Shown: positions 33,001 through 34,679 of the stretch, piece by piece
Position numbering within the stretch: position 1 is the first letter of the stretch
How the letters are laid out: each line of letters opens with the position of its first letter
IMG/VR virus record: IMGVR_UViG_2695420676_000013
Coordinates: 1 to 34,679 of that record
Source of the DNA: a virus
Lineage: Duplodnaviria > Heunggongvirae > Uroviricota > Caudoviricetes
Strand: one strand, 5' to 3'
Length of the DNA stretch: 34,679 bases
Made by a program: the position numbers

Positions 33001-34679
33001 GACAATGATAACCACGCACAGAACACGGTTCATATCACCACCAACGGATTGCCCAGACCAGAACAGCAATGGCCACAATACGAATGGCAAAAGCTGCCGC
33101 TCTTGTTAAATCCAGACTGGCTGGCGTCTCCACTTCAATGCCTTTCATAATGGACAACCTCAGAAAGAATCTTTTATACTTCCTCACAGGGAAAGTACCT
33201 CCCTACCCATAATTTCTCCCTTGCCTTACTCAAGGTCAGAAAACACAAAACCCCGCTTGCTGCCAACAAACGGGGTTTTTACTTTTATTCACTTAGGTTT
33301 TACCAGTTTTCAGGATTTCGTGTTATCCACCCGCGTTGGCCAACGTCATTTTTCAGGAAAATATTCTGCTATCTGTCGATGTCCCAGCACGCCAGCGCGC
33401 TCTCCTGGTCACGCCGTGAGACCTGACCGTAGCAATTATTTGAACGGATACGGCAGTCTCTGCCACCGTCCTTAATCCACCAGCGAATCGCCTCACAGGC
33501 ACCTTTTCGATCGCCTGCATTAATTCGTTTATAAAACGTCGACGGGAAGCACTTACCGGGGCCAATGTTGTACGGACAGAATGACGCGATCCCCGCTTTC
33601 TGGGGTTCGGTCAGCGGCACCCGGATGTTTTTCTCCACCCATGCCAGCGCCTTGTCACGTTCGATGGCATTAACCCGGTCGCATTTTTCCTTTGACAGCT
33701 TCATGCCAGGAATAACAGGCTTACCATCCACCAGAATGGCACCACGGCAGATGGTCCAGATCCCCGCACCATCACGGTATGCCGTGGTGTGGTTACCTTC
33801 CTTTTCATCCAGAAACTGGTCGAGGATTTCAGGCGCAGAAGCACCTGCACCAATCAGCGCCAGAACGGCAGCCGACAGGCCGTATTTTATTTTTTCGTTC
33901 ATGGGGATTTATCGATTTCTAATCCCTTGATATGTTAGGTATATAATCCAACACTCATGGTCGCTCTCATAAACATATCCCTTGAGACGCAGCAGATTAC
34001 AACAAATGAAGCCATATAAATGAACAGTAAAGAAAGTTTGCGCAGAAGATTTTTACAACTAATGACAGAAAACGTTAAATCAGAGTTACTTCTTCTGATG
34101 GCAGATAATAACGAAGCAACAAGCAGCATTCTTGCAGACCCTTACGGTAAGATCTCACATAAAACGCTGGATATTATTACCACAACATTAACACCGCTGA
34201 TGCTTCAACGGCTGAAACATAATATCAACGCATGGGTTAATGAAGAATTAAGTCCTCCCTGCTTATGGGATTCTCGTTACGCATGTCAGCAAAAAATGCG
34301 AATTTTCAACTTACTATCACCAAAGCTCAGGTAGCCATAAAATCCTGCCCTTCATGGCATACAGGATTTCAATGGAATCACAATGACCAACTCTTGCACA
34401 GCTGTATCCCTGACTCCCCGACAACTCAGATTTTCAGTATCTGCTGCTATCTAAAGAGAAAGCGCACAAATGCAAGGGTCTTTCATCACGTCCTGTTATT
34501 GATTGCCTGTGACCTTTTCTTACCTCATGGAACGTTTTTTCAGTTAGAAATATTCATTTTACAACCAGTTCGTATTGTTTATTCATCGACTACTCTCCCC
34601 GCGCCACCTTACGCTTATCTTCTTTAATCTTGAAATAAAGGTTAGTCAGATACGTCAGCAGGCCAAACAGCAGACTCCC

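Follow-up and report, generated by a model that had tools for sequence, protein, structure and literature searches.

The locus examined here raises a simple question, i.e., what occupies the stretch that separates the endolysin gene from the Rz gene in a member of the Caudoviricetes (IMG/VR record IMGVR_UViG_2695420676_000013; the window analyzed comprises 34,679 nt). All of the genes involved lie on the minus strand, in the order endolysin, gap, Rz, and the 335-nt gap was found at exactly the positions given in the initial annotation, i.e., 33034-33368. Directly upstream of it is a SAR-type endolysin gene (33369..33902) encoding a rrrQ-like lysozyme of 177 amino acids, which matched the Pfam family Phage_lysozyme (7.6e-24) and PHROG 7 (endolysin); an identical endolysin locus is named 'rrrQ lysozyme' in RefSeq. 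On the other side, the gene for the 155-amino-acid i-spanin Rz (32566..33033; Phage_lysis PF03245, 8.4e-49; PHROG 13) starts at ATG 33033 and contains the ORF of the o-spanin Rz1 (32813..32628), with the lipobox LVVSAC. The initial annotation held that R and Rz are usually contiguous. This is so in lambda-like cassettes, such as those of K-12 Qin and Sakai Sp3 and Sp8, where the two genes are adjacent, but not in the phage-21/Stx-like group, where the gap between R and Rz is normally filled (e.g., H-19B, Sakai Sp6 and Sp10, and type B arrays). The explanation that we favor, and regard as reasonably probable, is that the gap holds a module made up of a terminator hairpin and a small membrane-protein gene, inserted or retained in a phage-21/Stx-like late operon and coupled to Rz.

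The small gene was first described as an ORF for a 37-amino-acid peptide, running from ATG 33148 to TGA 33037-33035. Comparison of the window with a diverged allele (the L006-type) revealed 12 synonymous differences over 13.8 sites and no non-synonymous difference over 43.2 sites in codons 14-32, such that dS was near saturation and dN was 0 across these 19 codons. Given these 12 synonymous versus 0 non-synonymous differences, codon substitution shows that the ORF truly codes for a protein and is subject to strong purifying selection. The ORF was also conserved across related prophages, the point on which its reality had been made to depend, being intact in 62 of 64 same-type loci. A single transmembrane (TM) helix was predicted, as expected from the initial annotation, with a mean Kyte-Doolittle hydropathy of 2.1 over 19 residues and exchanges in this region limited to I/L/V/A; AlphaFold modeled residues 25-49 as a helix with pLDDT >90 and the N-terminal part with low confidence.

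Homologues with identities as low as 38-55% retained the architecture of the family, i.e., an N-terminal segment of basic character, followed by a [K/N]G-IEVETP linker, a single TM helix and, at the C-terminus, an invariant (I/V)RWW, and conservation at the amino acid level reached a betaproteobacterium (Silvimonas) and metagenomic phages. When one genome per species was scanned, an exact-pattern search returned no copies and a profile-based search matched Silvimonas terrae alone. The peptide is not, as had been thought, unannotated. It is a direct sequence member of PHROG 4493 (related families, PHROG 1115 and PHROG 3246), and the exact sequence has been deposited both as RefSeq WP_000675931.1 (PGAP), in which the start differs (37 versus 50 amino acids), and as EDL933 AAG56189.1, which is UniProt Q8X4B6 'transmembrane protein' (the exact 50 amino acids). 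None of these entries has a function assigned. Searches of the peptide and its distant relatives against Pfam, NCBIfam, PADLOC and PDB sequences gave no matches, and literature searches for WP_000675931, Q8X4B6, AAG56189, ECs_1966 and phrog_4493 found nothing about the gene. Several known classes of small lysis protein were rejected as identities for the product. It is not a spanin or one half of a split spanin, as only three residues follow the TM helix, there is no lipobox, and the true spanins Rz and Rz1 begin at 33033 and 32813; nor does it appear to be a holin or antiholin, as the Pfam and PHROG holin families were unmatched. A Mu-type releasin was likewise rejected, as DUF2730 (Pfam) was unmatched and the TM helix is C-terminal, whereas that of releasin is N-terminal.

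The reading frame is open beyond ATG 33148, from GTG 33187, and the length of the product thus had to be considered anew. GTG 33187 is preceded by the strongest Shine-Dalgarno (SD) sequence of the region (GGGAGG, -13.2 kcal/mol), and this start was conserved in 61 of 64 loci. The N-terminal extension that it adds was retained at the amino acid level in the divergent loci L137, P0071, P0074 and P0075 and, more weakly, in P0079; in Silvimonas, whose homologue has its own SD and a TTG start, the codons for NYKRFFMRLTM differ synonymously (CGC for AGA, TTT and TTC swapped). The long form is the one in use for EDL933 and in PHROG, and it matched PHROG 4493 with E = 1.4e-24 (profile positions 1-54 of 56), compared with E = 5.5e-16 for the short form. 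Since distant homologues keep the basic extension and the SD of GTG 33187 is the strongest, the product is probably the 50-amino-acid protein MRKYKRFFLRLSIMKGIEVETPASLDLTRAAAFAIRIVAIAVLVWAIRWW (33035..33187), and the RefSeq start is probably that of an N-terminally truncated gene model. The first description of the ORF was therefore accurate in its coordinates from ATG to TGA and probably not in its length. The internal ATG (33035..33148), perhaps a second start, has a GAGG 9-10 nt upstream (duplex -9.4 kcal/mol), and AGGTTGTCCATTATG at this position was nucleotide-identical even in the divergent L137. Because this SD is usable and the surroundings of the ATG are invariant in nucleotide sequence, the 37-amino-acid form, or both forms, could be made. 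The extension is entirely absent from the 28-amino-acid relatives of types B and C, and so is not essential to every member of the family. Upstream of the GTG lies a mini-ORF of eight codons (33184..33210; MGREVLSL; SD duplex -8.4 kcal/mol), which starts at ATG 33210 and whose TGA (33186-33184) overlaps the GTG start as GTGA. It is kept within the window-type allele, the L006-type allele not being homologous there, and might weakly be considered a translational coupler.

At its other end, the gene abuts Rz. The junction CGT TGG TGG TGA T ATG (33031..33046) comprises the R-W-W-stop codons, a single T (33034) and the Rz start, and GGTGGTGAT within it is complementary to the 3' end of 16S rRNA (duplex -11.5 kcal/mol). 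The proposal that a stop 1 nt before the Rz start reflects translational coupling gained from the wider comparison, in that the TGA-N-ATG junction with the next gene was present in 124 of 125 related loci; this geometry fits coupling of the small ORF to the gene that follows. A comparable arrangement is known from lambda-type cassettes (K-12 Qin rrrQ/rzpQ, Sakai Sp3 and Sp8), where the upstream gene likewise stops a few nucleotides at most from where Rz begins. Here, however, the partner of Rz is the small gene rather than the endolysin, which is set apart by a terminator. The same junction could be read to mean that only the DNA or RNA matters, i.e., the Rz initiation region together with the terminator, with the peptide being a functionless leader or chance ORF. 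The last codons do double as an SD for Rz, and unrelated small ORFs, such as the 45-amino-acid ORF of H-19B, share the RWW-stop junction. We consider this reading highly improbable, given that the synonymous changes accumulated in 19 N-terminal codons far from the Rz start, that amino acid conservation extends to a betaproteobacterium and metagenomic phages, and that RWW is kept in locus L130, where no gene follows. In its narrower form, in which the ORF merely carries an SD for Rz, it is ruled out by the substitution pattern.

The gap also contains the hairpin. The initial annotation noted a strong GC hairpin with flanking A/T tracts at 33249-33285, and these coordinates proved essentially right; the full element (33237..33285, minus strand) consists of an A-tract, a 15-bp stem (33279..33247) and then UUUUGUGUUUU. 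Six of the 15 pairs are G-C, the loop is 3 nt and GTGTTTTCTG comes next, such that, as in intrinsic terminators, a G+C-rich stem-loop stands directly before a U-run. Structure prediction, which had been called for, gave a stable fold on the gene strand (-24.1 kcal/mol, z = -3.6; 1 of 200 shuffles was as good) and a fold of -17.4 kcal/mol (z = -2.0) on the other strand, where the stem is also followed by a T-run; the hairpin is thus bidirectional in form. It was found in 115 of 125 related loci, its flanks (AAAGCGAAAGC...GCTTTCTGGATTC) are conserved, and the outer stem showed compensatory substitutions (columns 13/41, GC in 8 and AU in 6; columns 12/42, AU in 12 and CG in 2). The Silvimonas gene has a homologous hairpin on its 5' side, as do the genes of the metagenomic-phage loci L130-L133 and L137, and in L130 copies of the hairpin recur between the small genes. 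The element is conserved in structure and is shaped like an intrinsic terminator, termination itself being predicted. Both components of the gap exceed chance expectation, the hairpin by its recurrence across related loci and its covariation and the ORF by the intactness of its frame and purifying selection.

Across the loci compared, the hairpin and the gene moved jointly, as one unit, between genomic contexts. The module was located after a SAR lysozyme, an M15 peptidase, a 93-amino-acid protein, a lambda-R-like enzyme or a T4-like lysozyme, and before Rz, a 60-amino-acid lipoprotein or other genes; in distant phages it lay 3' of the major capsid or other structural genes. It also occurred in arrays in which small membrane genes of a similar kind are arranged in tandem, and its presence and copy number varied between otherwise similar cassettes. 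It is absent from Qin, Sp3 and Sp8, and the exact module was found in none of the Sakai prophages inspected (Sp3, Sp6, Sp8 and Sp10). Given that the module follows capsid genes elsewhere and occurs in tandem small-gene arrays, the product is most likely a moron-like accessory protein, encoded in the late operon and sited in the inner membrane, rather than a dedicated lysis regulator.

The initial annotation had suggested, as one possibility, a lysis-modulating peptide. Such a peptide would tune lysis timing via the pinholin, SAR endolysin release or Rz, perhaps as a dual-start pair of long and short forms. Copies in E. coli prophages do always lie within the lysis cassette, coupled to Rz, and the single TM helix is rich in small residues. 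The two candidate starts would yield forms differing by an N-terminal segment of charge +6, a likeness to the lambda S105/S107 and S21 68/71 dual-start holin/antiholin pairs, whose forms also differ in N-terminal positive charge; small membrane proteins that regulate lysis from within such cassettes also include the Mu gp25 releasin (PMC9239132). The gap gene departs from these holins and from releasin in that holin, antiholin and DUF2730 models were unmatched, the TM helix is C-terminal with three residues after it, and the family also occurs outside lysis cassettes. Because the module follows varied endolysins or capsid genes and precedes varied genes, a dedicated lysis role is unsupported: four unrelated endolysin types upstream, with Rz and non-Rz genes downstream, leave no constant lysis partner, and relatives behind capsid and structural genes are distant from lysis genes altogether. 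Moreover, lambda-type cassettes function without the module, and the 28-amino-acid forms have no second start. We therefore consider lysis modulation unlikely.

An accessory role accords with the moron concept (Juhala et al., 2000, e.g., HK97 gp15, as cited in PMC4104026). Like lambdoid morons, the unit is a small accessory gene with a factor-independent terminator, of variable presence and copy number, inserted between late genes that are adjacent in related phages. Unlike them, the gap gene has its terminator before rather than after it, is coupled translationally to the next late gene, and showed no promoter of its own, as no sense-strand promoter-like site was found between hairpin and gene by scan or inspection. 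A related possibility is that the gene would be a moron expressed in the lysogen, conferring on host or phage a benefit such as superinfection exclusion or tolerance of membrane stress, and that the hairpin would mark the moron boundary. HK97 gp15 and Cor are comparable lysogen-expressed morons. The polymorphism in presence and copy number, the variable genomic position, the terminator repeats that flank the gene in L130 and the intactness of the small gene in many cryptic or defective prophages would all suit expression in the lysogen. With neither a sense-strand sigma-70 promoter-like site nor a downstream terminator, and with no PADLOC match, however, we regard such expression as rather improbable.

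The module as we favor it, an accessory gene of the late operon, would work as follows. Read-through of terminators by Q-modified polymerase is general lambdoid biology rather than a property established in this phage, for which the Q gene and pR' are not within the window. In lytic growth, the late transcription complex, once modified by Q, would pass the hairpin, and the small protein and Rz/Rz1 would be made; in the lysogen, the hairpin would block stray transcription in both directions. Translation would begin at GTG 33187, behind the GGGAGG, and yield a 50-amino-acid product with its N-terminus in the cytoplasm, where the net charge is +4, and its C-terminus in the periplasm. Ribosomes ending the small ORF would reinitiate at the Rz ATG, aided by the SD-like GGTGGTGA of the Trp-Trp-stop codons, and the small gene would in effect substitute for the R-Rz overlap of lambda-type cassettes.

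This explanation does not fully account for a nearly invariant block of some 45 nt in the 5' part of the gene. Synonymous divergence within the block was 2 over 8.2 sites, versus 12 over 13.8 in the next 19 codons, which by codon comparison means that a nucleotide-level function overlaps this part of the gene. Inside the block lies a putative sigma-70 promoter-like site on the plus strand, antisense to the gene (33151..33180; TGGACA-18-TATACT), which scored 10/12 and was present with the same spacing in 62 of 65 loci. A transcript from it could run for about 100 nt (33187..33293, plus strand) and end at the hairpin, and this hypothetical RNA has a predicted fold of -26.6 kcal/mol (z = -3.4). 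The gap might accordingly encode a small RNA, as the initial annotation had also proposed, reaching from the plus-strand promoter to the bidirectional hairpin. Such an RNA could act in cis, in the manner of a type I toxin-antitoxin system, since it would be able to base-pair with the leader, mini-ORF and SD of the small-protein mRNA and could silence the peptide and, via coupling, Rz in the lysogen; alternatively, it could act in trans on host targets, as AgvB and AsxR do.

Several features of the site would suit such an RNA. Both hexamers were retained in L137 despite a changed spacer, L009 and Silvimonas have TAGTCA-18-TATA(C/A)T, and the predicted transcript ends in a stem and U-run. The layout also resembles hok/mok/sok in its small hydrophobic peptide, a leader ORF that overlaps the peptide start, and an antisense promoter-like site reaching a hairpin. 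Moreover, Tree et al. (2014; PMC4104026) described convergent short sRNAs from moron positions in the same prophages, and AgvB and AsxR would be the model here. Both are short RNAs that end in a terminator, run antisense to the late operon and belong to insertion sites within this group of prophages; they lie downstream of pR'/stx, whereas the hypothetical RNA would lie between R and Rz and has no Rfam match. The promoter match alone is not significant, however, as the scan found one site against a shuffle mean of 3.4, and the hexamers overlap conserved codons (K-Y-K, L-S-I) and the ribosome-binding region of the internal ATG, which could account for their conservation. They were not found in L130, L131 or the type B and C loci. 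The likeness to hok/mok/sok is limited in turn by the late-operon setting, the downstream coupling and the hypothetical status of the antisense RNA. The gene has no sequence homology to that system, nor to known type I toxins in Pfam or NCBIfam, and the toxin-mRNA promoter that a toxin-antitoxin system would need was not seen between hairpin and gene.

Searches for known RNAs were likewise negative. An Rfam cmscan of 31000-34679 at E<=1 returned only a sub-threshold rimP-leader match on the hairpin, with none for AgvB, AsxR, Esr41, STnc100, Sok or DicF, and a scan of the whole window at the gathering threshold returned IS009 alone, elsewhere in the window. The Pas sRNAs (bioRxiv 10.64898/2026.05.13.724894), considered as candidates for the site, map outside the gap, in the interval from the esterase gene to the holin gene. 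Among the Hfq-CRAC EcOnc peaks of Tree et al. that were mapped on Sakai, EcOnc11 falls downstream of Rz in Sp10, EcOnc33 inside nanS-p in Sp6 and EcOnc13/32 upstream of the holin in Sp3; none lies in an R-Rz gap, a negative that is weak because the Sakai prophages inspected lack the exact module. Although the promoter-like site is conserved, we thus treat the RNA as hypothetical, and a functional RNA module as doubtful.

A bolder conjecture, which we rate as distinctly improbable, is that the hairpin and the RWW-tailed protein form a self-propagating family of late-operon cassettes that move and duplicate through recombination at the conserved hairpin, and that the proteins would be a new class of membrane-acting regulators of late functions, e.g., a long/short pair gating spanin or holin and guarded in the lysogen by antisense RNA from the conserved internal promoter. 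The analysis adds that the gene is real, that its RefSeq start is probably wrong, that the hairpin is part of the unit of the gene and that the family extends beyond lysis cassettes; a 'hypothetical protein' is thereby well enough defined to be taken up by genetics. Should the protein or its coupling affect Rz/Rz1 levels, it would constitute an extra control point in a lysis pathway usually thought complete; if not, it would be another small membrane-protein moron, a class that is under-annotated owing to small size. The gene immediately precedes the spanin genes, whose products bring phage lysis and toxin release to completion, and it is common in E. coli. Of 5426 complete E. coli genomes, 664 (~12%) cover at least 80% of a 601-nt stretch across the gap, with 592 records at >=99% identity, and many of the genomes that carry it are those of Shiga-toxin-producing strains.

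The gap between the endolysin and Rz genes, both on the minus strand, spans 33034-33368 (335 nt), since the endolysin gene (33902..33369; 177 aa, Pfam Phage_lysozyme, SAR-type N-terminus, annotated as rrrQ at identical loci) ends at 33369 and Rz (PF03245, PHROG 13) starts at ATG 33033. Rz1 (32813..32628, minus strand) is embedded in Rz. The initial annotation had described a hairpin in this gap together with a 37-aa ORF ending 1 nt before Rz, and this description proved accurate: the ORF runs from ATG 33148 to TGA 33035 (minus strand), and a single T separates its stop from the Rz ATG. 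The 601 nt around the gap matched 592 E. coli records at 99% identity or more, and their coverage reached 80% or more in 664 of 5426 complete E. coli genomes. The ORF is not, as had been supposed, unannotated. It corresponds to hypothetical protein WP_000675931.1 (PGAP) and is annotated in phage GER2, while EDL933 lists this frame as a 50-aa protein, AAG56189.1 (“unknown protein encoded within prophage CP-933O”), which UniProt holds as Q8X4B6 (“transmembrane protein”).

To the 5' side of the gap, the endolysin ATG 33902 has no SD-like sequence in 33903-33924, its best anti-SD duplex being -2.6 kcal/mol versus -8 to -13 kcal/mol in its neighbours. The holin gene is split from the endolysin by an opposite-strand ORF, a second insertion within the lysis cassette (34020-34334, plus strand; 104 aa, called as 90 aa in RefSeq WP_000138558.1; PHROG 1853, no assigned function). 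The 80-nt stretch from the endolysin stop to the hairpin (33286-33368, minus strand) was conserved in all SAR-endolysin loci, with a variable middle between conserved parts, e.g., GGATAACACGAAATCCTG, and could represent a candidate 3'-UTR element.

RNA structure prediction confirmed a strong hairpin on the gene strand (15-bp stem, 33279..33247, minus strand, followed by UUUUGUGUUUU), which folded at -24.1 kcal/mol (z = -3.6), compared with a weaker -17.4 kcal/mol (z = -2.0) on the other strand. This terminator-shaped element was present in 115 of 125 related loci. Its inner-stem sequences varied by lineage with pairing kept, and the outer stem showed compensatory changes at columns 13/41 (G-C, n=8; A-U, n=6) and 12/42 (A-U, n=12; C-G, n=2). 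A related hairpin (CCCCG..CTG...CAG..CGGGG, with A-/T-rich flanks) was found 50-90 nt upstream of the small gene in the betaproteobacterium Silvimonas terrae and in the distant metagenomic phages L130-L133 and L137. Hairpin and small gene thus form one unit, hereafter the module.

A search with a degenerate pattern covering the C-terminal half of the small protein retrieved 120 IMG/VR stretches and left the N-terminal 19 codons free. Over these codons, the window differed from the L006-type allele, the commonest of the diverged ones, by 12 synonymous and no non-synonymous changes (12 over 13.8 synonymous sites versus 0 over 43 non-synonymous sites). Differences in the transmembrane (TM) part were I/L/V/A exchanges, and the 50-codon frame was unbroken in 62 of 64 window-type loci. 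Conservation extended to homologues in Silvimonas and metagenomic phages, and by these comparative criteria the small ORF is a real gene. It belongs to the uncharacterised small membrane-protein family PHROG 4493, with weaker matches to PHROGs 1115 and 3246, all three lacking an assigned function; searches of Pfam, NCBIfam, PADLOC and PDB gave no match.

Read from GTG 33187, the open frame encodes a 50-aa product, MRKYKRFFLRLSIMKGIEVETPASLDLTRAAAFAIRIVAIAVLVWAIRWW. This is probably the true product, and the RefSeq start is probably mis-called, because several observations favour the longer form. Firstly, homologues share its N-terminal part. The only match among one-genome-per-species bacteria, that of Silvimonas terrae (MNYKRFFMRLTMQNGLEV...AIRWW), starts at TTG behind an SD of its own and uses synonymous but different codons (CGC for AGA, TTT/TTC swapped). 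An exhaustive HMM search added the distant members P0071, P0074 and P0075 (51-57 aa), which retain the basic N-terminal segment, [K/N]G turn, IEVETP-like linker, one TM helix and RWW end, as well as a weaker match, P0079 (50 aa). Secondly, the GTG was retained in 61 of 64 loci (L009, ATG; L137, GTG). Thirdly, its anti-SD pairing was the strongest in the region (-13.2 kcal/mol, versus -9.4 for ATG 33148, -11.5 for the Rz ATG and -8.4 for an 8-codon leader ORF). Finally, the match to PHROG 4493 was better for the 50-aa than for the 37-aa form. The leader ORF (33210..33184, minus strand) overlaps the long start as GTGA and was conserved solely inside the window-type allele. ATG 33148 may serve as an additional start; its surroundings (AGGTTGTCCATTATG) were nucleotide-identical even in divergent L137.

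The single hydrophobic helix proposed initially was recovered by hydropathy (mean Kyte-Doolittle 2.1 over residues 30-48) and by AlphaFold (helix 25-49, pLDDT >90; N-terminal helix of low confidence). Its flanks carry a net charge of +4 towards the N-terminus and 0 towards the C-terminus, from which the positive-inside rule predicts a cytoplasmic N-terminus.

About 45 nt, from AAGTATAAAAG to ATGAAAGG, were almost invariant, with synonymous divergence of 2/8.2 sites versus 12/13.8 over the following 19 codons. Such constraint might reflect an antisense RNA, since the opposite strand of this block reads TGGACA-18-TATACT, which was kept in 62 of 65 loci, was retained in L137 although its spacer had changed, and appeared as TAGTCA-18-TATA(C/A)T in L009 and Silvimonas. 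The predicted transcript, from this promoter-like site to the hairpin, would be approximately 100 nt and folds well, in a layout reminiscent of hok/mok/sok and of convergent prophage sRNAs (Tree et al., PMC4104026). However, conserved residues and the internal ATG's ribosome-binding site also fall within this block, L130/L131 and the loci with 28-aa short forms (types B and C) lack the hexamers, and the promoter scan by itself was not above chance. Moreover, the locus had no Rfam match, and none of the published Hfq peaks that could be mapped lay in an R-Rz gap. We therefore consider an antisense RNA unlikely.

The initial annotation had also suggested a lysis-modulating role, but the evidence obtained does not support a role specific to lysis. 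The module was found behind SAR lysozyme, an endolysin of the M15 peptidase type, a protein of 93 aa, a lambda-R-like enzyme and T4-like lysozyme and, in distant phages, behind major capsid genes (lambda-E-like or SU10-like) and BPP-1-like structural genes. The next gene was Rz or a 60-aa lipoprotein (PHROG 7528), separated by 1 nt in 124 of 125 loci; in other cases unrelated genes followed. Judged from these arrangements, the module has no constant lysis partner, and the varied contexts on both sides identify it as an accessory unit of late operons that moves and duplicates. L130 has three copies of the related hairpin alternating with five small TM ORFs, two with a VRWW end. These three 48-nt copies, 77-94% identical, lie downstream of the major capsid gene (2923-3903; JGI 3300007140), in what looks like a tandem cassette array. 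Small gene and module fit known kinds of phage elements, and nothing found departs from these.

In cassettes of the lambda type (K-12 Qin, Sakai Sp3 and Sp8), R and Rz overlap without a gap, in contrast to the 335 nt of the window. The view that the two are usually contiguous thus holds for such cassettes but not for those other E. coli prophages in which the gap is filled. In some it contains a tandem run of small TM ORFs (29, 43, 38 and 28 aa), among them a paralogue of the window protein (..AFAIKWVAVGIAVSP..) and a short form of 28 aa; in Sakai Sp10 and Sp6 it contains ant and a 49-aa TM ORF. Phage H-19B (L138, AF034975.3) carries an unannotated 45-aa TM ORF, MFDFSKLIREIRVMAEKLSTWKFILIWLVFVIMASGYFIGQIRWW (991-1128), with an SD and GTG start behind the same hairpin. 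Its 3' end reads RWW-TGA-A-ATG, in which the ATG is the annotated Rz start (1130); it shares the C-terminal junction of the window protein but not its body.

At the 1-nt junction between the small gene and Rz in the window, the Trp-Trp-stop codons form GGTGGTGA, complementary to the 16S rRNA 3' end. The proposed coupling to Rz is consistent with the near-constant spacing, from which we infer it. By analogy with lambdoid biology, a Q-modified late transcription complex would read through the hairpin during lytic growth, and ordinary transcription in either direction would stop there in the lysogen. Translation of the small gene would bring ribosomes to Rz, and would thereby fill the role of the R-Rz overlap in lambda-type cassettes. 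The gene is common in pathogenic E. coli prophages, is placed at the last lysis step and is easily testable.

Several neighbouring arrangements were also observed. Type B (L003, L027 and 46 other IMG/VR loci) and type C (L029, L009) loci have the same endolysin-hairpin-Rz frame with three to four consecutive small TM ORFs of the sizes given above (29, 43, 38 and 28 aa), whose stops and starts overlap or are closely spaced and which include the paralogue of the window protein; hybrid proteins, e.g., P0039, indicate recombination between small TM ORF families. In M15-peptidase cassettes (L006, phiSTEC1575-Stx2k, 2149-2331; L134-L136; many IMG/VR loci), the small gene is followed after 1 nt by the 60-aa lipoprotein, which has the lipobox LLVGC and a mature part of 30 aa with three Cys. 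No Rz-like i-spanin was recognisable near it in these cassettes, and it may be a lysis component of the outer membrane, as yet uncharacterised. In Silvimonas terrae (L129, 2418-3851), the small gene lies downstream of a T4-like lysozyme and a hairpin; in place of a spanin, an ORF of 244 aa begins 2 nt after its stop, carrying an H-x-K...D motif that looks phospholipase-D-like. Within the window, the gene immediately downstream of Rz encodes a PerC-family transcriptional activator homologue (31787-32101, minus strand; PF06069, 3.8e-44) and is followed on the opposite strand by a YlcI/YnfO-family gene (31481-31705), and a full-length Rfam IS009 RNA (RF02111) is present at 4283-4481 (minus strand; 228 bits versus a gathering score of 117).
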